NCBI GenBank assembly: GCA_014816185.1
Contig: GCA_014816185.1_4095.1
Reading direction: 5' to 3' (one strand)
Length of the DNA: 64,000 bases
From: a phage
The notes under the pieces were generated by a model. The model made no database searches and had not been told where the DNA came from. It was given only the letters and a program-made list of their open reading frames with translations. The position numbers were made by a program, and so were the translations under genes. Positions 831 through 58,048 of the stretch are shown here, piece after piece (position 1 is the stretch's first letter; each line of letters opens with the position of its first letter).

Positions 831-920
<90 letters not shown>

Positions 921-10177: not shown

Positions 10178-10599
10178 GAGGCTATAATAAGATTTGTATT
10201 TTTGTATTTTTAGTTTGTGCATTCAATTCGTTTGGTTACTACTGTACAGAAAATAATATTTCATATGGTTTAAATCCTTTGTGGTTTACAATTTCCAATG
10301 TAGCACAAATTGGTATTGCTCTTATGTCTGCACTTATGTTCTGTCCAATTGTCACTATGGATACTGATCATGAAAGGCTTGGATTTCTCCGTGATACTGG
10401 AGACGAACCTTACAGTAGATTGATTGTGTTGTATCCATTTATTGTTATTTTAGGTACTAACATCCAACTTGGGTCATTATCTAATAGTGTTACATCAGCA
10501 GCTATTGCTATATTTGCATTCACATTTTTTATGGTACACAAATCAGTACTTAATTGGTATATCACAAAAATGGCAGAAGAAGGTACTAAAAATACTTGA
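10174..10599 (+). CDS. integral membrane protein
   Basis: ATGA overlap; multiple hydrophobic segments. Confidence 0.55.
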   Translation: MRGYNKICIFVFLVCAFNSFGYYCTENNISYGLNPLWFTISNVAQIGIALMSALMFCPIVTMDTDHERLGFLRDTGDEPYSRLIVLYPFIVILGTNIQLGSLSNSVTSAAIAIFAFTFFMVHKSVLNWYITKMAEEGTKNT

Positions 10600-10624
10600 C
10601 ATAATTTAGTATGTTATATATAAT
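10596..10624 (+). promoter_or_regulatory. sigma70-like promoter
   Basis: TTGACA - 17 nt - TATAAT upstream of the 10659 gene. Confidence 0.5.
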
Positions 10625-10910: not shown

Positions 10911-10984
10911 AAGTATTTGAGATAACAAATAATATGGAGTACAATGTGCTCCTAATTTAATTATCAGCTAAAAAGGAAAACATT

Positions 10985-11245
10985 ATGAAATCTATTCTCG
11001 TTGCAGTTAACCTGGTTGCTTACCCATCTTTCAACTTCAAACAAGTTGTTGCTGATAATCTGAAGAAGATCTGTCCAAACGCTGAATTAACTTTCTGTGT
11101 GTTTGATTCAGAAAAAGTAACTAAAGTTGATCTAAACTATCTTTTGAACGAAGTAAAAAGCGTTTCTGGTGAAAGTAACTTAAAAGTTCTTCATGATATT
11201 GCAGAAGATTATGATGACACTCTAGTAATTTCGGAGAAATTCTAA
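10985..11245 (+). CDS. hypothetical protein
   Basis: AAGGAAA SD. Confidence 0.6.
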   Translation: MKSILVAVNLVAYPSFNFKQVVADNLKKICPNAELTFCVFDSEKVTKVDLNYLLNEVKSVSGESNLKVLHDIAEDYDDTLVISEKF

Positions 11246-11250
11246 ATCAA

Positions 11251-11670
11251 ATGATTACATTCATTCAGTACTTAATCATTAAATTTTTTGGCTATCATAC
11301 GATTGAAGGCAAAGCTACACTCGCACATAAAATCTTTGTAGCATTATGTACGGGTGATTATGACGTATTGAATAAGTACTGTAAATCTAAAGCATGTATT
11401 GATATAATGGCACTTCGTATCTATGAGTGCCGTTCCAATAGATACAATTTTTACCAATACAGATTTGATGAAAAAGAATTTGATAGCATCAAAATGCTAA
11501 AGAATTTATGTAACAATAAAAAGAATATGCATATATCAGAATTTGTTGCTTTGTATTTTTATTTAAAAAGTTCATTGTATATGAACACAATGCAAAGATT
11601 CGATACTAGAATTAATGTATTCACCGATAAAGAATTTTATATATACGATAAATTCTTAGATAAGGTTTAA
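11251..11670 (+). CDS. hypothetical protein
   Basis: ORF in operon context. Confidence 0.5.
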   Translation: MITFIQYLIIKFFGYHTIEGKATLAHKIFVALCTGDYDVLNKYCKSKACIDIMALRIYECRSNRYNFYQYRFDEKEFDSIKMLKNLCNNKKNMHISEFVALYFYLKSSLYMNTMQRFDTRINVFTDKEFYIYDKFLDKV

Positions 11671-11671
11671 T

Positions 11672-12169
11672 ATGACAACTGTTTATATTGATAAACGATT
11701 AAATTTATTGATTACCGATTCTAGAGTTACGTCAACTATACCACGAAACTTATTTGGTTTTTTCCCACTAAGACCAAAATATCAATATGGAGTTGTTAAT
11801 CAAAAAACTTTATATGTACATGACCGTTTATTCAGTGCTAGTGGGGTAGTAAGTGAAATTGATAAAGTACTGGATTGGTTAATTAATAAAGTACCAGTTA
11901 TACCTGACAGAAAGTTAAGTTGCCATTGTGTGCTTCTTTCTAAAGATTATGTTATTCATATGATTTTAACTAAAGGAAAGTTTATTAAAAAACTTGAATA
12001 TCTACATGAAGACTACACTTTCTTTATGGGAAGTGGTGGAGAATACATGCTAGATGCTGCTATTCATGAAGAACATACAACTTTATATGATAAAGTGTTT
12101 AGTACTTTCATGGATGTGCACAACCATGATTGTTTCACAGATGATAATATTAATGTATATCGATTTTGA
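11672..12169 (+). CDS. hypothetical protein
   Basis: SD AAGG. Confidence 0.55.
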   Translation: MTTVYIDKRLNLLITDSRVTSTIPRNLFGFFPLRPKYQYGVVNQKTLYVHDRLFSASGVVSEIDKVLDWLINKVPVIPDRKLSCHCVLLSKDYVIHMILTKGKFIKKLEYLHEDYTFFMGSGGEYMLDAAIHEEHTTLYDKVFSTFMDVHNHDCFTDDNINVYRF

Positions 12170-12190
12170 TTTCGTCATTAGGAGATGTAA

Positions 12191-13156
12191 GTGAAAAAGC
12201 TTGATTTAAATACAATTGCCGAAGAAGTTCTGGATGAATGTTTTGCTAATGAAGAAGTCAACACACTAGAAGCCTTAGATTTCGTTGAAGATAAAGATGA
12301 AAATGAAGGTAAAGTACAAAGCAGTTTCAAATATAATATTACACTTAAGCGACCACCAAATGTTTCCAATGAAGATCTAATTCGTGATATTCAAGCTGGT
12401 ATCAATGTAAAGAAAAACACTGAACTGTTAGTTCGTTACAATTATGGACTGATTATTGATGTAGCAAGTAAATGTACTTGTTATATCCCATTTGAAGATA
12501 AGATTTCATATGGTGTTGAGGGGTTCATGAGAGCACTAAAAACCTTTGATCTTAATAAGAATGTTAAGTTCATTACCTATGCTTCTTCTAGTATTTACAT
12601 GACAGTCTATAACGAAAGTTCTGACGCTAACTATATGGTACACTTCCCACGTTATATGAGTGTTCATAAGATCAAAGTAAAAAGATTCTGTCAGGAATAT
12701 ATGCGTAAACATGGTGTTCGCCCAACTCCTGAAATAATCTCAGAGGGTACTGGGATTGAGATTCAGCATGTTAATAATTGTTTGTTATTTCAAAGCGAAT
12801 ACACTTCGCTGGATGCACCATTAGACGGTGTTACAGATGGTACATTAGGTGACATTATTCATTCACCTGCTTCTGATTTTAACCTCAATGTTGATAGTAT
12901 CCGTGCACCTTTGCGTTATGCTATCAATGAACTGACCAACGAATTGAGTACTAAAGAACGTGAGATTATCCAGCGTGTTCATGGTCTAGGTGAATATGAA
13001 CCTGAAACGCTTCGTGAGATTACTGATAATGGTTTTGTTGATGATAATGGAAAATATGTTAAATCCCGTTCATCAATACACCGAAAGTACAGTGAAGCTA
13101 TGCAAAAGCTTAAGAAGTTAGTACTTGCAAAAGGGTACGAATACGAAGATTTCTAA
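12191..13156 (+). CDS. putative sigma70-family sigma factor
   Basis: GTG start with AGGAG SD; region-2-like segment LVRYNYGLIIDVASKC...GVEGFMRALKTFDLNKNVKFITYASSSI and region-4-like C-terminus; recognised by eye only. Confidence 0.5.
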   Translation: MKKLDLNTIAEEVLDECFANEEVNTLEALDFVEDKDENEGKVQSSFKYNITLKRPPNVSNEDLIRDIQAGINVKKNTELLVRYNYGLIIDVASKCTCYIPFEDKISYGVEGFMRALKTFDLNKNVKFITYASSSIYMTVYNESSDANYMVHFPRYMSVHKIKVKRFCQEYMRKHGVRPTPEIISEGTGIEIQHVNNCLLFQSEYTSLDAPLDGVTDGTLGDIIHSPASDFNLNVDSIRAPLRYAINELTNELSTKEREIIQRVHGLGEYEPETLREITDNGFVDDNGKYVKSRSSIHRKYSEAMQKLKKLVLAKGYEYEDF

Positions 13157-13164
13157 AGAACAAG

Positions 13165-13189
13165 GGTTGGCTTATGCCAACCTTTTTTT
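13165..13189 (+). terminator. rho-independent terminator
   Basis: GGTTGGC-TTAT-GCCAACC followed by TTTTTTT. Confidence 0.6.
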
Positions 13190-13714
13190 ATGGGATGAAG
13201 TAAAAGTTTGTGATATAATTATCTTGTACAATTCTGTTGGCATGATATTCATGTACCTGATCCACTCGAAAACGTAGAGGGCAGTTGAGCAGTCCGACAG
13301 TGCGAACAGCAAAAGAAACCCGTTAGATGTGGGCATAGTTTGAACCCCTCACGGCAATGCGGCTGTATAAAGAACCACGTTAGGATAGCTGGTGGTTCCT
13401 TGATAGACATATAAGGATAACACCTTACGAATTATCTAAGGGAGAGTTATCGAATTTTGTACAGGAAAGTTGCGTCCAAAATTTGAGTACTCACATTAAG
13501 TATTTGATTGCATAGATACTTAATGAAGATACACTATGTTTAAAAGTGTAGACCGTCATATGAAACTGAAGTAGAGAGAAACAGGATGACCCGCTTTCGC
13601 ACTCGTTATGAGTAATCTTCAATGCAATAGCTCTGATACCATCAGCGTCAAATTTCCCTCCTTGTGGGGGGGAAGAAAAATCCCTTCCTCAAATCCCGTC
13701 AATATTAAAAGTCC

Positions 13715-13743
13715 TTGACAGTTATTAATCATTCGCGTAGAAT
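13715..13743 (+). promoter_or_regulatory. sigma70-like promoter
   Basis: TTGACA - 17 nt - TAGAAT upstream of the 13808 gene. Confidence 0.5.
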
Positions 13744-13807
13744 ACGTAGTATTAGAAGCGAACAGACATCTCGAAGAGATGGATGATTAACCATTAAGGA
13801 ATATCCA

Positions 13808-14017
13808 ATGAATTCAGTAATCTTTTTAGTAATAGCTTTTTCTGTTAATTCCGGTGTACAAATAACCCCAATGAATTCCATGAATCAATGCATTGCATTA
13901 CGTGATAGTACATACGAACAAGTAAACAAAGATATTTGGATTACAGTTAGTAAAGAACAAATGTGGTGTTACAATAGTAATACTAAAGAGAAACTTATTG
14001 TGGGTCAAACTAAATGA
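13808..14017 (+). CDS. small protein with hydrophobic N-terminus
   Basis: AAGGAA SD. Confidence 0.55.
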   Translation: MNSVIFLVIAFSVNSGVQITPMNSMNQCIALRDSTYEQVNKDIWITVSKEQMWCYNSNTKEKLIVGQTK

Positions 14018-14245: not shown

Positions 14246-15034
14246 ATGAGCACTATAGATGAATTGATTCGCCGGAATTCAAAATACTACAAACCATCAG
14301 AAATTGTAGGTAACATTACCAAATCAGAGTTTGGTCCAAATACTCGAAAACTCATTCATGTAATGTCACGTGATGGCTTTAAATGTGATTGTTGTGGTGA
14401 ATCCAATGTGGTATTCACTTTACATAAGCACAGTACTAAAGAACGTTATAAATTCAGACCTTATGTACTTAAAGGGAAACGCCTTGTACGCATGACGTTA
14501 GACCATAATGTACTTGACTGTCTTCAGGGCGGTAATGATAAAGAGAACATGACTGCACTGTGTGAAGATTGTAACGCATTACGCCAGCATAAGTTTGCTG
14601 AATACAGTGAGTTTAAACACTGGTATCATAACGCGGATCGTTCAATCGAGCCTGACGTTAACTACTGCTTCATTGAGTACATTAAGAATGCCAAAGATAC
14701 ATACATTCTTAAATCAATGTCACCTATTACCGTGTTTCCTGAGAACCTATTCACTACATTAAAGAATAGTTTTATTGTAGGTGATATTGATGCATTCAAG
14801 TATTTTGACAAAGGTGCAAAACATTTTGAAATTCAATGTCTTAGTACTGCACTATGTGAACTCATTAAAATTTACATAAAAGAGTATTTGGGTATTGACA
14901 ATGTACGTATACCAGAGTATACTTTTTCTATTGAATTCGATTGTGAATCAATCAAAGAGTTTGGAATTCTTTTCAATAAACAAATAGAACTTGCAATTCA
15001 AAACGAAATCAAGTACTATACTACTAACATTTAA
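14246..15034 (+). CDS. HNH endonuclease
   Basis: Cys-rich N-terminus (CDCCGE) and HNH-like motif LDHNVLDCLQGGNDKENMTALCEDCNALRQHK. Confidence 0.6.
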   Translation: MSTIDELIRRNSKYYKPSEIVGNITKSEFGPNTRKLIHVMSRDGFKCDCCGESNVVFTLHKHSTKERYKFRPYVLKGKRLVRMTLDHNVLDCLQGGNDKENMTALCEDCNALRQHKFAEYSEFKHWYHNADRSIEPDVNYCFIEYIKNAKDTYILKSMSPITVFPENLFTTLKNSFIVGDIDAFKYFDKGAKHFEIQCLSTALCELIKIYIKEYLGIDNVRIPEYTFSIEFDCESIKEFGILFNKQIELAIQNEIKYYTTNI

Positions 15035-15452: not shown

Positions 15453-15536
15453 ATGACTTTAGAGATTGTCTTTGGTATTGTTAGCTTAGTCGTCTGTGTG
15501 GGTTGGTTTGGGTATCTGATGATTTTTAGTGATTAA
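15453..15536 (+). CDS. 27-aa hydrophobic micro-protein
   Basis: AAGGA SD 7 nt upstream; MTLEIVFGIVSLVVCVGWFGYLMIFSD; below the ORF-track cutoff. Confidence 0.3.
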   Translation: MTLEIVFGIVSLVVCVGWFGYLMIFSD

Positions 15537-15539
15537 TAC

Positions 15540-15567
15540 TTGACATAAGATATCAGTACTGTATAAT
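15540..15567 (+). promoter_or_regulatory. sigma70-like promoter with CAGTACTG abutting -10
   Basis: TTGACA - 16 nt ending in CAGTACTG - TATAAT. Confidence 0.5.
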
Positions 15568-15612
15568 GTTTATATCAAACGAAATCCACTTTAACAAATG
15601 ATAGGAAATATT

Positions 15613-19635: not shown

Positions 19636-19868
19636 TACTAAGTTTTGTTGTTGCACTATTGTTTATGTTCTATCCTACACTAGTGGCATTAGCCACTAGA
19701 CGAACGATGGTAGATCTCACTACTGTATTCTTGCTAAACGTGGCATTAGTACTGGTTTCTATTATCATTCCAGTGAGCTTTACAGTTATTGATATTATTT
19801 CGGTATTACTCTTCGTGTTAAGTTATCTTATGCTTATTGAAGAAACAAATGTTGACAAACGTTCGTAG
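19626..19868 (+). CDS. membrane protein
   Basis: Two hydrophobic segments; SD AAGGTG. Confidence 0.5.
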   Translation: MYLVLSFVVALLFMFYPTLVALATRRTMVDLTTVFLLNVALVLVSIIIPVSFTVIDIISVLLFVLSYLMLIEETNVDKRS

Positions 19869-19926
19869 TACTATATAATGGTTCCTGTAGTCTGAAACTT
19901 AACACTTAAACTTGAGGTAAAAAAAT

Positions 19927-21437: not shown

Positions 21438-21629
21438 ATGTTGATTTATCAAAGTGATAATATTCGTGTTATGCAGCATCCCTACTTACAAATCTTTGAT
21501 GTGCAGCAGTATATGGAAGGTGATGACCCAAGAACCTATGGTCGTAAGTATGATTACTTCACTGTAAAGCAGTGTAAAAATATTAACGAAGTACGACAAT
21601 TAGTTCAAGAACTTCAAAACAAAGGTTGA
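21438..21629 (+). CDS. hypothetical small protein
   Basis: Start moved to ATG after AAGGA; stop codon sits inside the terminator hairpin. Confidence 0.45.
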   Translation: MLIYQSDNIRVMQHPYLQIFDVQQYMEGDDPRTYGRKYDYFTVKQCKNINEVRQLVQELQNKG

Positions 21630-21647
21630 CTTCGGTCAGCCTTTTTT
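21624..21647 (+). terminator. UUCG-tetraloop terminator with embedded -35
   Basis: GGTTGAC-TTCG-GTCAGCC plus T-run; TTGACT in the stem lies 18 nt upstream of TATAAT (21650-21655). Confidence 0.65.
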
Positions 21648-21683
21648 GTTATAATTCTCTTAATAAATTAGAGGATTTTAATT

Positions 21684-22124
21684 ATGTATGTATATCGTTT
21701 TGAACTTAAATTTAGTTACATTGAACCTAACTTAGATCCTGCACGAACTGTAGGTCCGTTTGCACGGTATTCAACCAGATACAGTACTAAAAATGGATTT
21801 GACCGTTTGCTTATGACTACACCTTCTCAATTCCAACCTGAACCAACTGAGGATGGGATCTATTCAATCAAAAGTGGATGGGTATTTGGCTGTCAAAGTT
21901 TGAAAGATTTGTTCAGATTCTTCACTATGGACTTGGGTAAATTGCATCGTGCTGGGTTTGCTATATCTGTATATGAAGTTCCAGACCACCATGTAGACAT
22001 TGGTCGTAATCAGGTTCAGTACTATTGCGGTAGTGCTAAATTAGTTCGTATCATGTCAGTTAAGGAAGCAAAGGATGAGTTCCGACAAAGTAAAAGAGAA
22101 ACACATGAGGTAATATATGGATAA
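21684..22124 (+). CDS. hypothetical protein
   Basis: SD AGAGGA. Confidence 0.6.
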   Translation: MYVYRFELKFSYIEPNLDPARTVGPFARYSTRYSTKNGFDRLLMTTPSQFQPEPTEDGIYSIKSGWVFGCQSLKDLFRFFTMDLGKLHRAGFAISVYEVPDHHVDIGRNQVQYYCGSAKLVRIMSVKEAKDEFRQSKRETHEVIYG

Positions 22125-22461
22125 AACTCAAATAGAATTAAAGAAATTTGTTTCATTCTATTTTCCTGATGACCCACGTAATTCACAAAAAGATATTGAA
22201 TATTATAATATCCTATCTAAACAGTTAATGAGAAAGTTTCAACAGTGTTTAACTATATTCAATACAGATGGAAGACGTAGATACCGAATCGTTTCAATGA
22301 ATGATGAAAACGCAAATTTCTTTGATTACGATGTAGTTTTTAGAGCATATAATGATGATCGTATAAAATTAAATTATGATCAAATTATACTTGACCTGAA
22401 TGTTATATGTGTTATAATCACTCACGTAGCCGAACTTAATGGTTTTAAAGAATGGTATTGA
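22117..22461 (+). CDS. hypothetical protein
   Basis: Overlaps upstream gene end. Confidence 0.55.
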   Translation: MDKTQIELKKFVSFYFPDDPRNSQKDIEYYNILSKQLMRKFQQCLTIFNTDGRRRYRIVSMNDENANFFDYDVVFRAYNDDRIKLNYDQIILDLNVICVIITHVAELNGFKEWY

Positions 22462-22475
22462 ATAGAGGATAACAT

Positions 22476-22742
22476 ATGAAGCTTAAATTACAATATAATG
22501 GATTTACTTTACGTAATGATACTGAATTTATTAATCGTTCTCCTGGTGCTGAACTGTTTTTACGAGAGATGAACATTCCTTTCATCATTACTACAGTGGG
22601 CGACCGTGAAGTTCTACAATATGCAGAGCATCCGATTATTGATGTTCCTTGGTACTCTGAGCATATGTACATGGATATGGCACGTCGCTACAACTGTAAG
22701 TTCGTAGTTGAAGGTGATAAAATTACAGTCGAATTTAAATAA
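22476..22742 (+). CDS. hypothetical protein
   Basis: SD AGAGGA. Confidence 0.55.
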   Translation: MKLKLQYNGFTLRNDTEFINRSPGAELFLREMNIPFIITTVGDREVLQYAEHPIIDVPWYSEHMYMDMARRYNCKFVVEGDKITVEFK

Positions 22743-22754
22743 GGTAAATTAAAA

Positions 22755-23048
22755 ATGATCAGTACTTCAGTTAATGAAAGCATCGTCGCTGACGTAGAAA
22801 TGGTTAAAGAATGTGCAGATGAAACTCTTCGTGATATGTACATTAATGATTTAATTACTGAATACGGTAGTCGTGGTGTACACGAATTTATTCGTTTAAG
22901 TGGAGAGTTGATGAAAAATCGAATTCGTATGAAGCTTAACGTACATCCAAAAGCATGGGCATTTACATTAAAATACGCAGAAGATATTGTGAATTTGCGT
23001 CGAACTGAAGTATATGAACGTTTGCACAATGGTATGTTAGATAAATGA
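22755..23048 (+). CDS. hypothetical protein
   Basis: SD AAGG. Confidence 0.55.
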   Translation: MISTSVNESIVADVEMVKECADETLRDMYINDLITEYGSRGVHEFIRLSGELMKNRIRMKLNVHPKAWAFTLKYAEDIVNLRRTEVYERLHNGMLDK

Positions 23049-23056
23049 TTGTAAAA

Positions 23057-23088
23057 AAGGAATTCTTAAATGAATTCCTTTTTGTTTA
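23057..23088 (+). terminator. rho-independent terminator
   Basis: AAGGAATTC-TTAAAT-GAATTCCTT plus TTTTGTTT. Confidence 0.55.
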
Positions 23089-23100
23089 TAAGGTATAGTA

Positions 23101-23322
23101 ATGAAATATATAGTACTTGTACTGATATTATTCAGTACTGTTGTAAGTGCTAAACAAAAAGAATATGTTAAATGTATAAATTATGAAGAGAAATATGTTG
23201 AAACATATAAAAAAAGTATAATTAAAAACGTTTCGATTACTAACAGAGCAACAATCATTGTACTTAAAAATGGGTTAATTATGCTATATAAACCACACGT
23301 TAAATGTGAAATTATTAATTGA
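23101..23322 (+). CDS. small secreted protein
   Basis: Signal peptide MKYIVLVLILFSTVVSA. Confidence 0.55.
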   Translation: MKYIVLVLILFSTVVSAKQKEYVKCINYEEKYVETYKKSIIKNVSITNRATIIVLKNGLIMLYKPHVKCEIIN

Positions 23323-23329
23323 GGAAATT

Positions 23330-23902
23330 ATGAATCGTAAAGGTCGTTTTAAAGTATCAAAAAAGAACAAAAGTTCTAGGTTTAAACCTATTGTTTTAAC
23401 AGTTAAATCTAACAAAGAATTAACTGCACTTAGTAAAAAGATAATTTCATCTAAGATTGAAGTATCATACGTAAATTCATTAAAATATATGAATGTCAAA
23501 CCACTGGACCAACTCATTTCACTTATATTTGAACGTAATGATTTTGAGATATCAGTAGATGATTATAGAGCCTATAATGCTGGTTTCATTAATGTTACTT
23601 GTAATAAAAAACTAACTGAGTTGGAAAATTTGTCATGTATAATAAATCTAGATAAAGGTGTTGTGAAGTACCATTTTGTACATTTCACTAATATCAATAA
23701 TGGAATGGGTGTACAATCCAGACCTATAGTGCCTACGTGTGATGTTACTAAATTAGCAAAGCTCAATGATGAAGAATATTTTCAAGAAAGCATTGTAACT
23801 GAGCATTTAGATGATATAATAGCTACTTACAAAGAATGCATATGGGTGTTGAATGCTATAAAACCTAAATTGTGTTTAATGAATATTGTTCGTGATTTAT
23901 GA
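23330..23902 (+). CDS. hypothetical protein
   Basis: Start moved to ATG after GAGGAA (MNRKGRFK). Confidence 0.55.
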   Translation: MNRKGRFKVSKKNKSSRFKPIVLTVKSNKELTALSKKIISSKIEVSYVNSLKYMNVKPLDQLISLIFERNDFEISVDDYRAYNAGFINVTCNKKLTELENLSCIINLDKGVVKYHFVHFTNINNGMGVQSRPIVPTCDVTKLAKLNDEEYFQESIVTEHLDDIIATYKECIWVLNAIKPKLCLMNIVRDL

Positions 23903-23915
23903 ATGGGGAATCGTA

Positions 23916-24359
23916 ATGAGTTGGGTAAATGTTAATAGTATTGAACTTAACGAACAAGATATTTTTGCATTTGTAAATTTAACTAATAACACAGTACTAA
24001 AAGGGCGTTTGTTCAGTGCTAGTGATGGGTACAAATGGATCTCTTTGATGGATGATAGTGGTGTGATTTATAATGTAATGCAATTACCCCAATGGGTATA
24101 TAGTAACACTGCTGACGATGTTCTTACCGCAGTTATGCGTGAGTTTGAAAAACTCCCAGGTGGTGATATCAAAAACAAAGTTTTTAATGCAGAACGTAAA
24201 AATTATACAGCACAGCAGTTGGAATCCCTTGCCATTGCTGCTTATCAAGCTGCTATTAAGAAGCCAGAGTGCGTTATTCTTAAGTATGTACCAGACTTAA
24301 AACTTACGTTGGAAGACATGGATGCATTCATTTTTACATCTGAACTTGATCAGTACTAA
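23916..24359 (+). CDS. hypothetical protein
   Basis: Start moved to internal ATG (MSWVNV). Confidence 0.5.
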   Translation: MSWVNVNSIELNEQDIFAFVNLTNNTVLKGRLFSASDGYKWISLMDDSGVIYNVMQLPQWVYSNTADDVLTAVMREFEKLPGGDIKNKVFNAERKNYTAQQLESLAIAAYQAAIKKPECVILKYVPDLKLTLEDMDAFIFTSELDQY

Positions 24360-24474
24360 TTTAACTTTGGGACAACCATTCTTATTATGATATAATGTTT
24401 TATGTCATTCGATATAAATGACAACGGAACTATAAATATTATAGTAAAATTTATCTCTTATAGGAGTTATAAAA

Positions 24475-24858
24475 ATGGTTGATAAATGGAATAAGAAAGA
24501 TCCATCACATGATGTTGATATTTCTGGTCTAGACAATGCACATAAGCACAAGTATCTAGATTCACTAGGTCTTCTAAAACCAGACCAAAGTCTTGCACAT
24601 GATCGTCCATCCCGTGAAAAAGCATTTAGCCTAGAATCACTAGGTCATGAGCTTAATCGTGTGTTTGAGGATCACCCAATCTATGTACGTGATATTATCG
24701 AGAAACTTAAAGTAACTCCTAAAGAGCACTTTAAAGCAACTGTACACTCTGCATTCCGTGCATTACATGAATCTCTAAAGAAAACTCACAATCTTCGTAA
24801 AATTCATGATGAAATCGTGAATGCAATCGAAAGTGAAAAACATAAGTTCAAGAAGTAA
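24475..24858 (+). CDS. hypothetical protein
   Basis: SD AGGAG. Confidence 0.6.
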   Translation: MVDKWNKKDPSHDVDISGLDNAHKHKYLDSLGLLKPDQSLAHDRPSREKAFSLESLGHELNRVFEDHPIYVRDIIEKLKVTPKEHFKATVHSAFRALHESLKKTHNLRKIHDEIVNAIESEKHKFKK

Positions 24859-24864
24859 TAAAAA

Positions 24865-24890
24865 GGGGTTGACTAAGGTCAGCCCTTTGT
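24865..24890 (+). terminator. terminator, variant of the TTGACT hairpin family
   Basis: GGGGTTGAC-TAAG-GTCAGCCC then TTTGTTG. Confidence 0.55.
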
Positions 24891-24927
24891 TGTATCATAA
24901 ATTCTCAATATAACTGAGGTATCATAT

Positions 24928-25041
24928 ATGCAAGGTTTGAAATTTGTAGTTGCTGCACTCATCGCCGCAGTACTGGTTGGTGGTGTATTCTATGTAGTGG
25001 ATCAAAAAGTAAATCCACCTGCACAAGAACAATCTAAGTAA
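24928..25041 (+). CDS. 37-aa single-TM micro-protein
   Basis: GAGG SD; sits alone between two terminators; MQGLKFVVAALIAAVLVGGVFYVV... Confidence 0.35.
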   Translation: MQGLKFVVAALIAAVLVGGVFYVVDQKVNPPAQEQSK

Positions 25042-25048
25042 CAAAATA

Positions 25049-25076
25049 AGGTTGACTTCGGTCAGCCTTTTCTTTA
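25049..25076 (+). terminator. UUCG-tetraloop terminator
   Basis: GGTTGAC-TTCG-GTCAGCC plus T-run. Confidence 0.6.
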
Positions 25077-25103
25077 TACTATAAATATAGACATAGAGAA
25101 AAA

Positions 25104-26381
25104 ATGAAATCTATGGAGAGAAATCAAATGCCAAGTAATTTTACTGATAAAAATGGTGGTAACATGGCTGGTCACTCTGATAAATGGAGTGAACGCAACC
25201 GCCGTCCAAATAGTTATCAAGCAGGTCAAGGTTCACGTGGATCACGTAACCAAGGAACTGGTCTAGCTGGTAAAGCAAACGCAGAAGCAGGTGAAGTTAA
25301 GAGTACTGAGAACATGACTGAGCTAGAAAAGCTACGTTATGTTAATTCATTGGGACTTCTTAATGCTACACAAAAACAACGCCTAGCTGATATGGAACGT
25401 GAAGAAAAAGAAAAATCTGCTCCTGCTAAAGAAGAACCAAAACAAGAAGCACCAAAGGCGGTTAACCCTGTCAAAGAACTGTCGGATAAGTTAGGTAAGA
25501 TTTTTGCTAATAAACCACAACTTATCCAAGGTATTGTGAAAGAATTGCAATCTGTACCTAAAGAAGAATTAAAAGTCAAAGCACAAGCTGTGCTTGATGC
25601 AATGAGTGGAAATACCAGTACTGAACCAACTGAAGTATTCAGTACTATAATGCGTGCACTTGAAGGTACGCAACAAGGTGATGTGCCTGCACAAGAGGAA
25701 GTAAGTCTTGAAAGCGTACTTAAAACATTTGATAGTATTGGTAAAGAAGACCGTGCTAATGCTCAAAAAGTTAAGAATGTACTAGCTAAGTTAGAAAACC
25801 GTCTGGAAGGTAAAGACGATAAGATTAAATTAGTATCTGATGCAGTTAACGATGCACTTAAATCTTATGTACAAGGTGAAAAGAGTCGTTTTGTAACTGC
25901 AATGGATGCTGCATTCAATACTATGAAAAAGTATGAAGCTGATCATGGTGAGAAGGTTACACGAGATGGTTATCTGATGCGTGATGATGAAGAAGGTGCA
26001 GTAGAACAGAACGATGTTCATTCAGACGAAGAAATTGATGACATGGAAGCTGAACTGTCACAAGACCGCCAAATGACTGAAAAATCCCATAACGAACTAC
26101 AGAAATTAATGCAATGGGTTGCAGATGTTGGTGAAAAAGCTGGTGCTGATAAGAAGAGTATAAACCGAAATCTTAGTTGGATTAAAGATAAAGTTGGTAA
26201 CAACGCTCGTAAACTACAAAAAGCGTGGACTGATGTAGTGAATGGTGCTGTTGATATTGATGTTGAATCCGGTGAGGCATATGATTATGCATTGACTACA
26301 CTTGATGACTCTTTCCGTGATTACGAAAATGGAAATGTAACTCCTTGGGAAAAGGACATCATGAGCAAATACGGTAAATGA
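25104..26381 (+). CDS. hypothetical acidic protein (425 aa)
   Basis: Long ORF, highly charged, coiled-coil-like. Confidence 0.6.
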   Translation: MKSMERNQMPSNFTDKNGGNMAGHSDKWSERNRRPNSYQAGQGSRGSRNQGTGLAGKANAEAGEVKSTENMTELEKLRYVNSLGLLNATQKQRLADMEREEKEKSAPAKEEPKQEAPKAVNPVKELSDKLGKIFANKPQLIQGIVKELQSVPKEELKVKAQAVLDAMSGNTSTEPTEVFSTIMRALEGTQQGDVPAQEEVSLESVLKTFDSIGKEDRANAQKVKNVLAKLENRLEGKDDKIKLVSDAVNDALKSYVQGEKSRFVTAMDAAFNTMKKYEADHGEKVTRDGYLMRDDEEGAVEQNDVHSDEEIDDMEAELSQDRQMTEKSHNELQKLMQWVADVGEKAGADKKSINRNLSWIKDKVGNNARKLQKAWTDVVNGAVDIDVESGEAYDYALTTLDDSFRDYENGNVTPWEKDIMSKYGK

Positions 26382-26388
26382 TAAAACA

Positions 26389-26417
26389 AAAGGTTGACTT
26401 CGGTCAGCCTTTTTTTG
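26389..26417 (+). terminator. UUCG-tetraloop terminator
   Basis: AAAGGTTGAC-TTCG-GTCAGCCTTT plus TTTTT. Confidence 0.65.
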
Positions 26418-26452
26418 TAAATACAAAAGAGGAATTAAGAAGAGGGATTACA

Positions 26453-26704
26453 ATGAAAAAATATATTATATTTGGAATTGTATTATTTTCCAGTACTGCT
26501 TATGGTGCAGATTATCATTGCTCCGTAGCAAGGCAGGATTTCAGAAATGGGGAGTTCTATACTACCTCATACACAAAAGGAATAATACACGACACCGACA
26601 GAACTATTGGATTTAATGCGTTTGACAACAAAGATTCATATACTTCAGGTATACTATCTGAGCGTAAGACTGATGTAATGGGAATAGAAAAAGAGTTCCG
26701 GTGA
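26453..26704 (+). CDS. small secreted protein
   Basis: Start moved to ATG after AGAGGG; signal peptide MKKYIIFGIVLFSSTAYG. Confidence 0.5.
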   Translation: MKKYIIFGIVLFSSTAYGADYHCSVARQDFRNGEFYTTSYTKGIIHDTDRTIGFNAFDNKDSYTSGILSERKTDVMGIEKEFR

Positions 26705-26714
26705 TTCAGTAGCA

Positions 26715-27038
26715 ATGTGCAATGGCATTGAAAGTACTAAAACAATTTATTATAATAATGAACGTAACTATCGTTTTCATAATTTAACCACAAATAAAAG
26801 TTTACTATTTTACAATTGTAAAGAAGTAATACTCCCATCAGACAATAGCTGTACTCCAACTAATCAACCCCCAGCACAATGTAATACTCCCTCTGAACCT
26901 GATAAAAATAAAAAAGACAAAGATAAAGATAAAAAAGAAGACAAAAAACCTTTAAAAGATAAAAAGAAAGATAAAAAACCTAATCCGTTTAAAAATAATA
27001 AACAAGCACAACCCGATATGACGTGTAAAATAAAATAA
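26715..27038 (+). CDS. Lys/Asp-rich low-complexity protein
   Basis: ORF with KKDKDKDKKEDKK tract; weak SD. Confidence 0.35.
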   Translation: MCNGIESTKTIYYNNERNYRFHNLTTNKSLLFYNCKEVILPSDNSCTPTNQPPAQCNTPSEPDKNKKDKDKDKKEDKKPLKDKKKDKKPNPFKNNKQAQPDMTCKIK

Positions 27039-27047
27039 GGATATATA

Positions 27048-27467
27048 ATGAAAAAGATTTTTTTAAGTATTATTTTAGTACTTTTTAGTTTTAATGTATA
27101 TGCAGCAGATGCTAAACAGGTTGCAAATACAGTAAAAGATGTTATAGTAGATAATGCTCCTACATTAGAGGAAATTGGGGTAAAAACTTGTGATATAGTA
27201 ATATATAATTTAGTTAATGATGAACGAGTTATGTTGAATACGTATGAACAAGTAGTCCCATTGGTTGAATCTGGTGATGCTTTTAGATTTACATATAAAG
27301 TTAAATTAACAGGAGGGGTTGAAGTTAATCTTGACATTGATACCGCTTCAGTACTAAAAGATAAACTAGGATATGTGTTCAATCGTATTCGTGAAGAAGG
27401 TCATCTTAAGTATGTTTATGAAAGTAAAATACTAAAACGTGCAATAGTTATAGAAAACTGTAAATGA
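27048..27467 (+). CDS. secreted protein
   Basis: SD AAGGA; signal peptide MKKIFLSIILVLFSFNVYA. Confidence 0.6.
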   Translation: MKKIFLSIILVLFSFNVYAADAKQVANTVKDVIVDNAPTLEEIGVKTCDIVIYNLVNDERVMLNTYEQVVPLVESGDAFRFTYKVKLTGGVEVNLDIDTASVLKDKLGYVFNRIREEGHLKYVYESKILKRAIVIENCK

Positions 27468-27475
27468 TAATAAAA

Positions 27476-27501
27476 GGGTTGACTTCGGTCAGCCTTTTTT
27501 G
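27476..27501 (+). terminator. UUCG-tetraloop terminator with embedded -35
   Basis: GGGTTGAC-TTCG-GTCAGCC plus T-run; TATGAT 18 nt after TTGACT. Confidence 0.65.
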
Positions 27502-27536
27502 TTATGATGTTGGTATTAACTACAGAGGATAAAGTA

Positions 27537-28178
27537 ATGACTAAGCAAGACATATTCAAAACTTTAATTGACATTTTGCGTCCATCAAAAACTCGTTGTG
27601 CGATGGAGTTTGATATTCCTTATGCTGAACGCGTAATCTTTCCACAAGTTAAAGCTGCTGGACTTACTTTTCTTGGAATGGGGATGTACTCTGTAGTAGT
27701 TGAACATAAAAACTATCCTGGACGTGCATTTAAAGTAACCACTTCACGCTGGGATGGTTTTCGTGCTTATGCAAAGTACTGCATTGAAAACGCAGGAACC
27801 AAGTTTCTTCCAGTGATCTACAGTGCCAACGAACAAGGAAACTTTGGATGGTATGAGATGGACAAGTACTATCCTATAATTAAACAAAAAAATAATTATG
27901 ATGACTTTGTTAGTACTAAAATTGGAGATTTATATTCTTATGCACATGCTGGTCAGTACGCTACTTCAGTGAATGATATGCGTGGTAATTCTGAAGAGAT
28001 TGCTATTGCGACGGTCGCTGCTAACATCATGAAAGAGTTTCACGGGCGTTTTGTACCAGACATTCATTCAAGTAATGTAATGATGGATAAAGATGGGAAT
28101 GTATTCATTACTGATCCTCTTTCGTGTGATGTGCGTAGAGAAATACCAATTACTGAAGAAGATCCAGTTTTTTATTGA
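27537..28178 (+). CDS. hypothetical protein
   Basis: Track start at 27504 lies inside the -10; moved to ATG after GAGGAT. Confidence 0.6.
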   Translation: MTKQDIFKTLIDILRPSKTRCAMEFDIPYAERVIFPQVKAAGLTFLGMGMYSVVVEHKNYPGRAFKVTTSRWDGFRAYAKYCIENAGTKFLPVIYSANEQGNFGWYEMDKYYPIIKQKNNYDDFVSTKIGDLYSYAHAGQYATSVNDMRGNSEEIAIATVAANIMKEFHGRFVPDIHSSNVMMDKDGNVFITDPLSCDVRREIPITEEDPVFY

Positions 28179-28239
28179 CAGAACTGATGTTCTGGTGTAT
28201 TCTTAATAAACCATAAAAATTGCGGTAAAGGATAAAATC

Positions 28240-28521
28240 ATGCGTTCATTTGAAAACTTAATAGGTAAGCATCTTTTATCTGAAATTGATGCAGACGTTA
28301 AAGAATTATCCAAATCAAAAAGTTACATTCATTTGGATGAACTGTTTATTAAGTACGGTGAGATTGGTTTTAAGTCATTATTTGTTTTTACTATGAAAGT
28401 ACATAGTTTAAAGTACTTTGATTTGAGTACTAAAGATGGTGAACCGAATCTATATTACATGTATTACCTTAAGAACAAAGATGAAGCTAATACATTACTC
28501 TCTGAATATATATTGGGGTAA
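28240..28521 (+). CDS. hypothetical protein
   Basis: SD AAGGA. Confidence 0.55.
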   Translation: MRSFENLIGKHLLSEIDADVKELSKSKSYIHLDELFIKYGEIGFKSLFVFTMKVHSLKYFDLSTKDGEPNLYYMYYLKNKDEANTLLSEYILG

Positions 28522-28523
28522 AA

Positions 28524-28862
28524 ATGGAACAATATTTTGAATTAATAAACAAAGTATCATTTTATGTAGTATCTTTGGTTTGGGTGTATTATATGTTTTG
28601 CTATATTATTGCATTCTTCCGATATACTACTTTATATGAACGTATCTACTATGATGCCCCAATTTCATTCTTGATGTTTTGTGCATGTACGTGGGGAATA
28701 TTAGAAGTACTGATATGTGGGTATAGTACTGATGAATTAAATCTGGTATCGGTGTTGACTGGGTTTTCATTTGTTGTTATGATAGCTGCCGTTCCAGTAT
28801 GGTTGTTCTTTGGACTAGTTCATCGCATTGATATATGGCGTTCTAATATCCCTGAAAAGTAA
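28524..28862 (+). CDS. small 3-TM membrane protein, family M
   Basis: About 112 aa, three hydrophobic segments, basic C-terminus RSNIPEK. Confidence 0.6.
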   Translation: MEQYFELINKVSFYVVSLVWVYYMFCYIIAFFRYTTLYERIYYDAPISFLMFCACTWGILEVLICGYSTDELNLVSVLTGFSFVVMIAAVPVWLFFGLVHRIDIWRSNIPEK

Positions 28863-28871
28863 GGATTGGTA

Positions 28872-29213
28872 ATGATTTATTACACTAACATGTTTGCCTA
28901 TGCTGTTGCTTGCATTTACATTGTGTACTTCTTATTCGGTGGAGTACTGTGCTTCTTTAAGTACAAAACGTTGTTCAACCGAATGTACCCAAATCATCCA
29001 ATTGTAGTTGTACTTTTGATTCTTTCAGTTTCTCAAATAATCGTTGAAACTACAATGGGTATCAGTAGTGTACATTATAGTTTTGGCACTATAGTAATTA
29101 TTACTATGCTTATTGCATACATTTTAGTACTTGGATATGGTATCTTTGGTAATATTGGTATGAAAATGTATCATCGAATTAAAACATTACGTGATAATCT
29201 ACCGGAGCGTTGA
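28872..29213 (+). CDS. small 3-TM membrane protein, family M
   Basis: ATG after AAGGA; C-terminus RDNLPER. Confidence 0.55.
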   Translation: MIYYTNMFAYAVACIYIVYFLFGGVLCFFKYKTLFNRMYPNHPIVVVLLILSVSQIIVETTMGISSVHYSFGTIVIITMLIAYILVLGYGIFGNIGMKMYHRIKTLRDNLPER

Positions 29214-29214
29214 T

Positions 29215-29559
29215 ATGTATAATTTGAACCTAATCTCATATATTATAACAACACTGTTTACATTCTATGCCTTTGTTGGTATAATCCTACTGTACTTTAA
29301 ATTTTATAAAGTGTTTAACCGTTTCTATCCTTCAATGGAGAATGAGTTTTTCTTTGTGTTGTACGTAGGTTACACATTAATGGCTACATGTTTCACTGTA
29401 GCCGATGGTGTCATCGGCATTAAAACTGATTCCCCAAATGGTAGTACGCTGGTTGCATTTATTCTTACTGGATTCCTTGCAACTTATATTGCCTTCATTA
29501 CAACATGGTCAGTGGTTGAATTTCTCTTGCGACTACGAAAGAATATGCCGAATCGATAG
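29215..29559 (+). CDS. small 3-TM membrane protein, family M
   Basis: ATG after GGAG; C-terminus RKNMPNR. Confidence 0.55.
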   Translation: MYNLNLISYIITTLFTFYAFVGIILLYFKFYKVFNRFYPSMENEFFFVLYVGYTLMATCFTVADGVIGIKTDSPNGSTLVAFILTGFLATYIAFITTWSVVEFLLRLRKNMPNR

Positions 29560-29568
29560 GAGACATAT

Positions 29569-29823
29569 ATGTTTGCGTTGCGTAATAAAAACACTAAAGA
29601 ATTATTATGTATTGATACCGTATGGGATTGTGCGGGTTCAACTACAGTTCTTGAAGAAGGAACTGGATATTGCGTGTTTGTTGTACATGATAGGAATGAA
29701 CTCGAATTATTACTTGCTGAGTTCAATGCTGGTGGTAATCCTAACAGTACTGAATACCCTGAGATTATCAATCCAGCACCTCCAGGTTCATATGAAATCC
29801 TACCACTATGGGTGTTGAAATAA
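29569..29823 (+). CDS. hypothetical protein
   Basis: SD AGGAGA. Confidence 0.55.
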   Translation: MFALRNKNTKELLCIDTVWDCAGSTTVLEEGTGYCVFVVHDRNELELLLAEFNAGGNPNSTEYPEIINPAPPGSYEILPLWVLK

Positions 29824-39527: not shown

Positions 39528-40697
39528 CTAAGCAGAAGGCATATCCTTCATCTTAATAAATGAAAATTGTGTACCAGTATTTGTGGTTTGATCAGTAAAA
39601 TATGAATTACTACCAGCCCAGTACAATTCATTATTAACTATACAATATATAACAGAACTCGAACTCTGTGAATACACACGACTTATATTTGATGGTTCTA
39701 CTCCAGTACTGAACTGAACCGAACCCAACTGTGAACTTGGTATCACATCAGTTGGTCTACCTAAACCATTAACACCAGCCCCACCACCACATGTATATAT
39801 CCCAGTACTATCAGTTGATATATTAACATAACCATTTCCAGCATTTTCAAATAGTATTTCACTGGGAACAACACCAAATCCTGTAAGATCTATTTTCCTG
39901 AATGTAGTATAAACCGTAGAACCGCCAACACCTCTTCCACCATAATCATTAGAACCAGCCATATAGATACTATATCCAGAACTTCCTAAACATAATAACT
40001 GTACGTTGTCATATAATATTTGCATAGATATAACGTTATCAGGAATACTCAATACCGTAAAAGTAGTTAAAGAAGAACTTCCAATATTACTACCAACCGA
40101 TGTTCCACATCTGTAGTACTTACCGCCCTTTATATAATGGAATGATGAACCACCTAATTTATGTGCTCCTATTGCACTTACCTCAGTATCTATGAGAATG
40201 GGAGATACAACTTTGTTATTAACACCTAACTCAGATCTACTGTTCATACCGAACCCATATAAACGACCATCTAACATCAATATTAGTGTACTACCGGAAG
40301 TACCCGCTGACGTAAATTCTATATTCTTTATTTGCGACACGTCAATACCTACAAATAATGAAGTTACTTCAGTCCAGTTAACATATGAACCACTAGCCCC
40401 AAAATATCCACCCATGTATAGACCTGCACAATATAATTTATTATCAACAGTCTTTATTAATGTACCGGATACACACGCCCAAAAATCATCAACTTCATAG
40501 GGTACATGTACCCAACCACCTAATACATCACTAGCATCCCCTGTACCTAATTTATAGTTCGAACCAGAACCACGCATGTACATATTCCCTGTACTATAAA
40601 GTAATCCGACATGTAATTGACTACCATCCAATTTCTTTATTTCAGGAAGAGTTGGTTTAATATTTCCGTACTTTAACATTCTTCCAAAAGGTAACAT
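39528..40697 (-). CDS. RCC1-like repeat protein, MLPF family
   Basis: Start set at conserved MLPFGRM (track ORF reads through the upstream cassette); AAGGAGG SD; GxNxxGQLG-type motifs. Confidence 0.7.
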   Translation of the reverse strand: MLPFGRMLKYGNIKPTLPEIKKLDGSQLHVGLLYSTGNMYMRGSGSNYKLGTGDASDVLGGWVHVPYEVDDFWACVSGTLIKTVDNKLYCAGLYMGGYFGASGSYVNWTEVTSLFVGIDVSQIKNIEFTSAGTSGSTLILMLDGRLYGFGMNSRSELGVNNKVVSPILIDTEVSAIGAHKLGGSSFHYIKGGKYYRCGTSVGSNIGSSSLTTFTVLSIPDNVISMQILYDNVQLLCLGSSGYSIYMAGSNDYGGRGVGGSTVYTTFRKIDLTGFGVVPSEILFENAGNGYVNISTDSTGIYTCGGGAGVNGLGRPTDVIPSSQLGSVQFSTGVEPSNISRVYSQSSSSVIYCIVNNELYWAGSNSYFTDQTTNTGTQFSFIKMKDMPSA

Positions 40698-40775
40698 AAT
40701 TCCTCCTTTATTCATTATACTATATTTAATACAAATAAGAAAGCCAGTACAAAGTACTGGCATAGTTTTATAGTA

Positions 40776-41885: not shown

Positions 41886-41956
41886 ATTTCCCTCCTTATT
41901 CATTATACTATATTTAATACAAATAAGAAAGCCAGTATCAAGTACTGGCCTATATT
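41886..41956 (-). promoter_or_regulatory. conserved terminator-promoter-SD cassette (representative)
   Basis: Minus-strand sense GCCAGTACTTGATACTGGC hairpin + TTTCTTATTTG, then ATATAGTATAATGAATAAGGAGGGAA + ATG; near-identical copies in 40698-40775, 42695-42765, 43909-43980, 45145-45216, 46405-46475, 47625-47695, 48836-48905, 51227-51297, degenerate at 39456-39527. Confidence 0.65.
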
Positions 41957-42694: not shown

Positions 42695-42765
42695 AATTCC
42701 CCTCCTTATTCATTATACTATATTTAATACAAATAAGAAAGCCAGTATCAAGTACTGGCGTAATG

Positions 42766-50015: not shown

Positions 50016-50023
50016 ATTCCCTC

Positions 50024-57785: not shown

Positions 57786-58048
57786 ACTGAATTATTACTT
57801 TCACCTTAATTTCAATTACCCTTTTACCCTTCGGGGTAAAATTCAATTACCCCTTGAGGCTCCAGCAAAAAGTTGGTTAGTACTCCATCCTAAATCTCGA
57901 TCCTAAAAATTTTGGAGTACCTATGAAATAAAAGTTGGATCTTCGAAAGTTGAAATTTACGTTGGGACGTTTATGATTTGTGGGATATAATGATGTTTGT
58001 AGTCGGGTAGTTCTCAAGAATATCAGTACTGAAAGATGAAAGAAAGTT

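Follow-up and report, generated by a model that had tools for sequence, protein, structure and literature searches.

An RpoD-like sigma factor of Asteriusvirus jumbo phages and a candidate class of middle promoters

Judged from its sequence, the protein encoded by the open reading frame (ORF) analyzed here is a genuine member of the sigma-70 family but not an orthologue of RpoD, and its DNA-reading surfaces appear to have been rebuilt. The gene lies in a stretch of 64,000 nucleotides, in the following called the window, which belongs to an Asteriusvirus jumbo phage, a giant E. coli phage of the PBECO4/121Q type. We consider it evenly balanced whether this early RpoD-like sigma factor redirects the host RNA polymerase to a discrete class of "middle" promoters of replication genes (class 2, see below). 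This class is the best candidate target of the protein and seems a better one than the promoter-like cassettes of an RCC1-like gene array, for which a phage sigma factor had originally been suggested. The question bears on how giant phages without an RNA polymerase of their own time their gene expression.

Positions 11500-14000 of the window are 98.6-99.8% identical to Asteriusvirus genomes from Escherichia and Salmonella (PBECO4, 121Q, phAPEC6, Sharanji, SD-15_S21, and others). With 121Q gp167, which is annotated as "RNA polymerase sigma factor" and encoded by a CDS of the same length (966 nt including the stop codon), the protein shares ~99% identity, and it carries such an annotation already in about 20 near-identical phage genomes. 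Full-length homologues with 30-60% identity are present in other Rak2-like jumbo phages (RaK2, K64-1, 7t3, GAP32, CBB, BF, and XbC2), with 44% identity to the RaK2 protein and 35% to that of GAP32, in each case across 98% or more of the length, and a range of 30-45% for the proteins of RaK2, GAP32, 7t3, and XbC2. From the RpoD-like sigma factors of the Rak2-like phages or Group 2.2 (121Q gp167, those of PBECO4 and phAPEC6, Sharanji WNN14470.1, RaK2 ORF244, GAP32_490, and CBB_513) it does not differ in substance; this is the same gene, and the sigma factors of the clade have in common the layout of regions 2, 3, and 4, an insertion in region 4.2, and the loss of a tryptophan dyad. Group 2 jumbo phages have been described as lacking an RNA polymerase and encoding a minimal gp55-type sigma factor as well as an RpoD-like one (PMC7824862), the latter being a hallmark of Group 2 according to the Sharanji paper (PMC11895373). 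In phage CBB, the orthologue CBB_513 is located in the predicted early region (PMC5259590). Since the gene is annotated in many genomes and treated as known in these papers, its identification as a sigma factor gene is correct but already known. Promoter or sigma factor analyses are absent from the RaK2 genome paper, and our literature searches found neither an experimental study of a member of this sigma family nor transcriptome or start-site data for an Asteriusvirus.

Several methods agree on the family membership. In Pfam searches, the strongest region was Sigma70_r3 (E = 2.1e-9; 37.8 bits, exceeding the gathering cut-off), followed by Sigma70_r2 at residues 80-140 (E = 7.1e-5; 23.0 bits and thus just under the cut-off of 24) and a Sigma70_r4 match (E = 8.4e-4), which is partial (profile positions 4-27 of 50) because the insertion in region 4.2 splits the domain; beyond the insertion, the rest of the domain can be aligned. 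Sigma70_r1_1 and Sigma70_r1_2 of Pfam did not match the ORF. The NCBIfam model RpoD_Cterm matched residues 79-282 with 8.6e-25, its 87.7 bits comparing with an equivalog cut-off of 354, and PRK05658 scored 64 against a cut-off of 555; the RpoS, SigB/F/G, and FliA models of NCBIfam also matched, all with scores far below their equivalog cut-offs. The lack of Pfam matches for regions 1.1 and 1.2 and the scores far under the RpoD cut-offs indicate that the GenBank label "RpoD" of some records is a family-level name and not a statement of orthology. In the PHROG search, the ORF matched only PHROG_351, "RNA polymerase sigma factor" (5.9e-59, residues 1-317), and no gp55-type PHROG. Also, phmmer against PDB sequences retrieved 58 sigma factor chains, the best being RpoD with 9e-17. 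The AlphaFold2 model has a mean pLDDT of 69 and contains confident helical sigma-2 (~50-147), sigma-3 (154-199), and sigma-4 (232-314) domains, whereas its N-terminal residues 1-49 and the 3.2 linker (201-236) are disordered. With this model, all of the 50 best Foldseek matches in the PDB were sigma factors, foremost sigma-S and sigma-A from structures of holoenzymes (best 4.3e-9, sigma-S); their TM-scores are low (~0.35) because the domain arrangement of the free model differs from the holoenzyme-bound form. The region 2 profile, the helix-turn-helix (HTH) of region 4, and the overall fold thus all identify a sigma-70-family protein. The original prediction of a sigma70-family protein with region-2-like and region-4-like segments is thereby confirmed; both segments are real, region 3 is present as well, and the proposed HMM search against the sigma70 regions yielded sigma-domain matches instead of no significant hits. 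Via regions 2 and 4, the protein would be expected to bind the host core RNA polymerase.

To compare the protein at the residue level, the ORF was aligned with 12 phage homologues and residues 373-613 of E. coli sigma-70; a second alignment contained cellular homologues. The equivalents of N383, D403, G408, G411, F427, T429, Y430, A431, and P453 of sigma-70 are invariant or nearly so in the phage family. With E. coli RpoD (sigma-70) and RpoS (sigma-S), the phage protein shares the order of regions 2, 3, and 4 and the equivalents of N383, D403, G408, F427, Y430, A431, P453, and R584. The overall identity to bacterial group 1/2 sigma factors is ~24%, and the phage protein differs from these by the missing Pfam match for region 1.1/1.2, an 8-aa insertion in the HTH turn, and substituted -10 and -35 readers. 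The dyad W433/W434 is replaced by S133/S134 in our ORF and by TT, AA, or AS in other clades, its loss extending to 13/13 aligned phage sequences, and Q437 and T440 have become M137 and Y140. Residues Y155 and V158 occupy the positions of H455 and E458, the extended -10 readers of sigma-70. In region 4.2, the R584 equivalent (R293) is kept, whereas E585, R586, R588, and Q589 are changed to S294, S295, H297, and R298. Among W433, W434, Q437, T440, R584, E585, R588, and Q589, R584 is therefore the sole residue with a retained equivalent, which is not the pattern of an RpoD. The insertion in the turn of the HTH has the consensus G[FY]xDxxGKxV and was found in 13/13 aligned phage sequences (from Asterius, RaK2, 7t3, GAP32, and XbC2) and in none of the aligned cellular homologues. 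AlphaFold2 predicts it as a short beta-hairpin, with pLDDT values of ~84-88 for the insertion as well as for the region 4 helices (254-264, 274-280, and 293-314). At its N-terminus, the family carries a conserved acidic segment, MKKLDLNxIxDEVLDECF. The positions of the regions and of the transcription and translation signals discussed below are listed in Table 1.

Table 1. Location of the sigma factor gene, its protein regions, and associated sequence signals in the window
Feature	Position	Strand	Remarks
Sigma-70-type promoter	10596..10624	+	TTGACA-17-TATAAT, perfect (12/12 matches); head of the gene block including the sigma gene
Sigma-70-type promoter	10917..10945	+	TTGAGA-17-TACAAT, 10/12 matches; directly 5′ of the four-gene unit 10985-13156
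Shine-Dalgarno sequence	12180..12184	+	AGGAG, 6 nt 5′ of the GTG start of the sigma gene
Sigma-70-family sigma factor CDS	12191..13156	+	321 aa; GTG start; orthologue of 121Q gp167
Region 2	12425..12631	+	aa 79-147; N84, D103, G108, G111, F127, Y130, and A131 conserved
Region 3	12650..12868	+	aa 154-226
Region 4	12884..13132	+	aa 232-314; recognition helix 293-314
Family-specific insertion	13025..13060	+	D279-V290; net +8 aa vs. sigma-70; turn of the region 4.2 HTH
Intrinsic terminator	13162..13189	+	GC-rich hairpin and T-run; closes the sigma transcription unit
Class-2 promoter	13192..13219	+	GGGATG-16-TATAAT with TGTGA; directly 3′ of the sigma terminator; candidate sigma target
Class-2 promoter	24369..24396	+	GGGACA-16-TATAAT with TGA; 5′ of gene 24475-24858
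Class-2-like promoter	57964..57991	+	GGGACG-16-TATAAT; followed by ~890 nt without called gene
Class-1 variant, terminator-embedded	21613-34705		GGGTTGACTTCGGTCAGCCC-TTTTTGC-TATAAT
Class-1 variant, followed by 5′ hairpin	59335-63806		AAAGTACTTGCAA-N16-GTATAATGTTTTACAT

The sigma factor gene is the last one in a co-oriented block, and between the promoter at 10917 and position 13162 no terminator-like sites were found. Promoters with sigma-70 consensus are dense around the gene. Together with the two promoters at 10596 and 10917 and the terminator at 13162, this points to an early gene, which is most likely transcribed by the host sigma-70 holoenzyme.

For a survey of promoters, we used 350 kb of OR844650.1, a genome with 97.6% identity, in which genes were called crudely and the upstream intergenic segments analyzed. 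Class 1 (early), TTGAC[AT]-N16-18-TAnAAT, comprises 51 sites compared to 7.3 expected. Class 2 can be written as G(G/A)GACA(A)-N16-TATAAT and usually has TGn in front of the -10 element; in the form G[AG]GACA-N15-17-TAnAAT it was found 18 times, compared to 2.3 ± 1.7 in Markov simulations, and in 18/18 cases the site was co-oriented with the next downstream gene. The two classes were contrasted among all sites of the form NNGAC[AT]-spacer-TAnAAT, with 20 sites having GG or GA and 51 having TT at the first two positions. TGn precedes 16/20 GG/GA sites and 10/51 TTGAC[AT] sites (p = 4e-6), and a spacer of 16 nt is present in 17/20 and 24/51, respectively (p = 0.004). At position -13, G occurs in 32/51 TTGAC[AT] sites and in 0/20 GG/GA sites (p = 4e-7), class 2 always having A or C there. 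Class 2 hence forms a discrete population rather than a tail of class 1. Its sites are directly followed by genes for the large subunit of topoisomerase II, for primase, SSB, and two exonucleases, for the gp55-like late sigma factor, and for Lon-like and ClpP-like proteases as well as a nudix hydrolase, a set which is typical of a "middle" regulon; four structured ncRNA paralogs also lie downstream of such sites.

The third class (late) is represented by ATAAATA, the most enriched heptamer of the upstream segments apart from ribosome binding sites (29 segments, 18.6-fold). It is located 29-47 nt 5′ of the start codon in 23/28 sites, mostly before large genes, and a position count of these 28 sites conserves only ATAAATA and an upstream T-rich tract. 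The sequence TATAAATA occurs twice in the window, compared to 13.6 ± 3.7 expected, both times just 5′ of orthologues of two 121Q virion-protein genes; in the 350 kb it occurs 14 times, of which 10 are intergenic and just 5′ of genes, and it is strongly avoided elsewhere. The gp55-like sigma factor has a gene of its own at another place of the genome (PHROG_12791, 2.7e-154; 121Q gp591). For annotation purposes, three promoter classes can thus be separated in Asteriusvirus genomes. In the CBB paper, a "divergent RpoD-like" class with TGAAACG and TATA was described 5′ of DNA-synthesis genes and of the gp55-like gene (PMC5259590), and class 2 corresponds to it. As a motif of the window, TGAAAC, the "-35" of CBB and GAP32, is not enriched (50 matches vs. 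51.8 expected); its Asteriusvirus equivalent is GGGACA/GAGACA.

Which promoter class the phage sigma factor reads we infer from these sequence patterns. The mechanism proposed would start at consensus early promoters, from which the host sigma-70 holoenzyme transcribes the sigma gene. The protein would then attach to the host core RNA polymerase via regions 2 and 4 and redirect it to the phage-specific middle class G(G/A)GACA-N16-(TGn)TATAAT, the altered -35 specificity resulting from the substituted residues of the recognition helix and from the beta-hairpin insertion in region 4.2. Class 2 would thereby drive the genes of replication and nucleotide metabolism, the gene of the gp55-like late sigma factor, and the four structured ncRNA genes, giving a three-step cascade from host sigma-70 via the phage RpoD-like sigma factor to the gp55-like sigma factor acting on the ATAAATA late promoters. 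In its most specific form, the proposal states that hairpin and replaced recognition helix together create a new -35 specificity, namely G(G/A)GACA for Asteriusvirus, TGGAACG for Mimasvirus, and TGAACA for Alcyoneusvirus, and that the protein is the master switch for replication genes, late sigma factor, and ~450-nt RNAs despite having no W dyad; this we advance tentatively, with slightly more doubt than confidence.

Since the protein keeps a full, modified region 4, its targets are expected to contain a -35-like element. In sigma-70, R584 presumably contacts the ACA of the -35 hexamer, while E585, R588, and Q589 are presumed to read its first positions. The R584 equivalent is kept in the phage protein and so is the ACA in class 2, whereas other residues stand in place of E585, R588, and Q589, and TT at the beginning of the -35 hexamer has given way to GG or GA. 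The changes in region 4.2 would therefore fit those in the class-2 -35 element. A comparison of clades points in the same direction. At a distance of 16-17 nt from TATAAT, the -35 element reads GGGACA in Asteriusvirus, TGGAACG in GAP32 and XbC2, and TGAACA, TGAACG, or TGAATA in the RaK2-like phage KP13-7, these sites being located 5′ of the gp55-like gene or of neighboring genes of the replication module, with few promoters per clade. Clades with different region 4.2 helices thus also have different hexamers, and TGGAACG of GAP32 and XbC2 matches the TGAAACG class reported for CBB. The gp55-like gene of Paride, a PA5oct-like phage, is preceded by a canonical promoter, TTGACT-17-TAAAAT. Of the 251 records that matched the sigma factor (tblastn, E ≤ 10), at most 2 are from Pseudomonas phages, whereas a gp55-like gene was found in 11 Pseudomonas records; the PA5oct paper gives TTGAC/TATAATA promoters only. 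Both the -35 variation between clades and the pattern in Paride and the other Pseudomonas phages would fit the sigma cascade.

Other observations on these promoters and on the protein count against a link between them. With a perfect TATAAT, TGn in most cases, and 4/6 of the sigma-70 -35 positions, class-2 promoters could probably be used by host sigma-70 unaided. The phage sigma factor, on its part, is devoid of the TGn readers (H455 and E458 changed to Y and V), of the -12 readers (Q437 and T440 changed to M and Y), and of the W433/W434 melting dyad. Also, any clade-specific activator could give rise to the same -35 pattern.

According to the original prediction, the phage sigma factor would take the host core polymerase in a -35-independent manner to -10-only cassettes (TTAAATATAGTATAATGAATAAAGGAGG) in front of the RCC1-like paralogs, an explanation which we regard as very doubtful. 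The array consists of 11 paralogs on the minus strand (39528 to 52476), and RCC1-family Pfam matches were obtained for 2/3 paralogs tested. The cassette layout is present 5′ of 10/11 paralogs and is nearly identical in nine of them, consisting of a hairpin GCCAGTAC..GTACTGGC, a T-rich run, GTATTAAATATAGTATAATGAATAAAGGAGG, and the ATG; the tenth cassette, at the head of the array, is divergent and has TGATATAAT, and the paralog starting at 50015 is without a cassette. That conserved TATAAT cassettes lacking a -35 element exist in the array was rightly noted, and they are strongly constrained, since the mean identity of the 62 nt in front of the paralogs is 89%, compared to 26% for the proteins. 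This constraint speaks for the explanation, as does the combination of a perfect TATAAT with neither -35 nor TGn, which unaided sigma-70 should use poorly; moreover, some non-standard reading of the -10 element is conceivable for a sigma factor that has lost its -12 and TGn readers. The role assigned to the sigma factor found no support in our analysis, however. The -10 context of the cassettes (AGTATAATG), with G at -13 and no TG, is that of the early class. In its form GTATAATG, this context matches the ordinary TTGAC-type promoters and not class 2, the one discrete non-canonical class of the genome. Promoters without -35 would also not require a region 4 that is complete, conserved in the family, and equipped with a specialized insertion. 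In our survey of the upstream segments of the genome, the cassette type was confined to the array, and yet the sigma factor is conserved in clades for which one RCC1-like gene has been reported, such as GAP32 (PMC7247149). Alternatively, the array could be transcribed from the single head promoter with TGATATAAT by read-through of weak terminators, or by re-initiation helped by the AT-rich upstream tract, or the gp55-like sigma factor could use TTAAATA, which is present in each cassette and one mismatch away from the late ATAAATA. A similarity of the RCC1 cassette to a few late promoters (ATAAATATAGTATA) had suggested that it may be a late-type promoter; by the 28-site count, this resemblance is not a feature of the late class.

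A second alternative to the redirection toward class 2 is that the phage protein serves as a general stand-in for host sigma-70 on TTGACA/TATAAT promoters once sigma-70 has been inactivated or outcompeted, with no promoter class of its own. Its closest profile relatives are indeed the RpoD and RpoS groups, window and genome are packed with sigma-70-type promoters (the class-1 excess given above), and the residues of region 2 that align with what we take to be the -11A pocket of sigma-70 (F127, D120, K123, K126, and Y130) are largely kept. However, the specificity residues W433, W434, Q437, T440, H455, E458, E585, R586, R588, and Q589 are all replaced family-wide, which together with the HTH insertion makes a specificity identical to that of sigma-70 unlikely. 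An AsiA-like anti-sigma factor was not detected either, although tblastn with a T4 AsiA query sequence is a weak test here (best E = 0.86). Overall, we regard a mere stand-in as rather unlikely. Highly improbable in our view is a third reading, in which the protein mainly shuts off the host by occupying the core enzyme and displacing the sigma factors of the host, with no productive promoter recognition of its own. The missing promoter-melting W dyad and the predicted early expression would agree with it, but regions 2.4, 3, and 4.2 including the insertion are conserved across clades at 30-45% identity, which argues for selection on the DNA-reading surfaces and not on core binding only. Moreover, ECF-type sigma factors also have no W dyad and still open promoters.

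The proposed redirection of the host polymerase to class 2 resembles two known regulatory systems of phages. T4 transcribes its middle genes by appropriation of sigma-70 through MotA and AsiA and its late genes with gp55, gp33, and gp45. The late promoters with ATAAATA are of T4 type, a gp55-like sigma factor is encoded, and, as in T4, a distinct middle class changes the -35 element that is read and keeps a sigma-70-type -10. The difference is that T4 remodels region 4 of the host sigma-70 via AsiA and MotA, while the phage studied here encodes a whole sigma factor with an altered region 4. In the Bacillus phage SPO1, the early phage sigma factor gp28 replaces the primary sigma factor on the host core RNA polymerase and turns on the middle genes, before a further phage sigma system drives the late genes. 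The logic of this cascade is the same as that proposed here. However, gp28 is a small, divergent sigma factor and the phage protein a full RpoD-like one, and no close sequence relationship between them was seen. A passage summarizing the SPO1 cascade is contained in PMC13401047. If the phage sigma factor reads G(G/A)GACA/TGnTATAAT, this would represent a sigma cascade of the SPO1 kind that runs in E. coli and uses an unusual region 4 and no melting dyad, and it might provide orthogonal promoter/sigma pairs for the engineering of E. coli.

The non-coding region 3′ of the sigma gene was further searched against Rfam, which gave nothing credible at gathering thresholds or with E up to 10. By eye, blocks resembling conserved parts of RNase P had been perceived in this region; no Rfam model supports them. 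The four structured RNAs downstream of class-2 sites, paralogs of ~450 nt, are flagged here as an unannotated and previously undescribed ncRNA family.

The element directly 3' of the sigma gene, which encodes an RpoD-like sigma-70-family factor, has three further non-coding paralogs in the Asteriusvirus genome; these were located in OR844650.1, a 97.6% identical genome, of which 350 kb were analysed as sequences L008-L014. Each of the four paralogs is preceded by its own class-2 promoter (G(G/A)GACA-N16-TGnTATAAT) and ends in a CCCCTGCGGGGGG hairpin followed by CCCGTCAA. Extended blocks are unchanged across the four paralogs, and two-sided compensatory changes were found by RNAalifold at 27 of the 76 predicted pairs in an alignment of only these four sequences. 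No ORF was found in the paralogs, nor did they match any Rfam family, even at E ≤ 10. Judged from their sequences, they look like an undescribed family of structured non-coding RNAs. A class-2-like promoter at 57964 is likewise followed by about 890 nt without a called gene, within which a degenerate tandem repeat array of 16-nt and 24-nt units (AGATGGCTAAACGTCT) occupies positions 58439-58598. This stretch may represent a further non-coding RNA or a repeat related to replication or packaging.

Coordinates of the features (plain numbers refer to the window, L numbers to the analysed sequences of OR844650.1)
Feature	Position	Strand	Remark
Non-coding element, ~500 nt	13222-13720	+	Directly 3' of sigma gene
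Paralogous non-coding element	L013:11480-12060	-	
Paralogous non-coding element	L010:28380-28860	-	
Paralogous non-coding element	L012:8160-8650	-	
HNH endonuclease gene (121Q gp170)	14246-15034	+	~1.1 kb downstream of sigma gene
Combined terminator-promoter cassettes, nine copies	21613-34705	+	
TATAAATA copy	24431-24438	+	Just 5' of orthologue of annotated 121Q virion structural protein gene
TATAAATA copy	25080-25087	+	Just 5' of orthologue of annotated 121Q virion structural protein gene
RCC1-like array, 11 paralogs	39528-52579	-	
Class-2-like promoter GGGACG-16-TATAAT and gene-free stretch	57964-58880	+	
Promoters with recurrent AGTACT	59335-63806 (+); also 15525-15571, 19837-19883, 30190-30236		

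The octamer TATAAATA is strongly avoided, with 2 copies in the 64 kb window versus 13.6 ± 3.7 expected and 14 in the 350 kb of L008-L014. The window genes behind the two copies are orthologues of 121Q gp199 and gp201, and the most enriched heptamer of upstream regions is ATAAATA. The TATAAATA/ATAAATA sites are late promoters of the T4 type, and the separate gp55-like sigma factor presumably recognises them.

In the terminator-promoter cassettes (GGGTTGACTTCGGTCAGCCC-TTTTTGC-TATAAT), the -35 hexamer TTGACT lies within the terminator stem, so that each terminator hairpin also provides the next promoter. The RCC1-like paralogs share only 17-32% protein identity; the 62-nt cassettes 5' of them (hairpin, T-run, TTAAATATAGTATAATGAATAAAGGAGG) have a mean identity of 89%, the N-terminal peptide MLPFGRM.KYGNI is likewise conserved, and the junction at 50016-50023 is without a cassette. 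The cassette hairpin also contains AGTACT, a ScaI-like motif often present as the palindrome CAGTACTG and found at fixed positions within promoters, either immediately 5' of the -35 (AAAGTAC-TTGCAA) or immediately 5' of the -10 (CAGTACTG-TATAAT). This motif could be a regulator site or a component of promoter recognition. A conserved GC-rich hairpin in the 5'-UTR lies downstream of many AGTACT-bearing early promoters.

As in the window, an HNH endonuclease gene lies 3' of the sigma gene of GAP32, there immediately, and this pairing may reflect conservation of the neighbourhood or a hotspot for homing endonucleases. Upstream of the sigma gene, a tRNA-Thr (TGT) gene was detected at 837-910 (+) by ARAGORN and Rfam.
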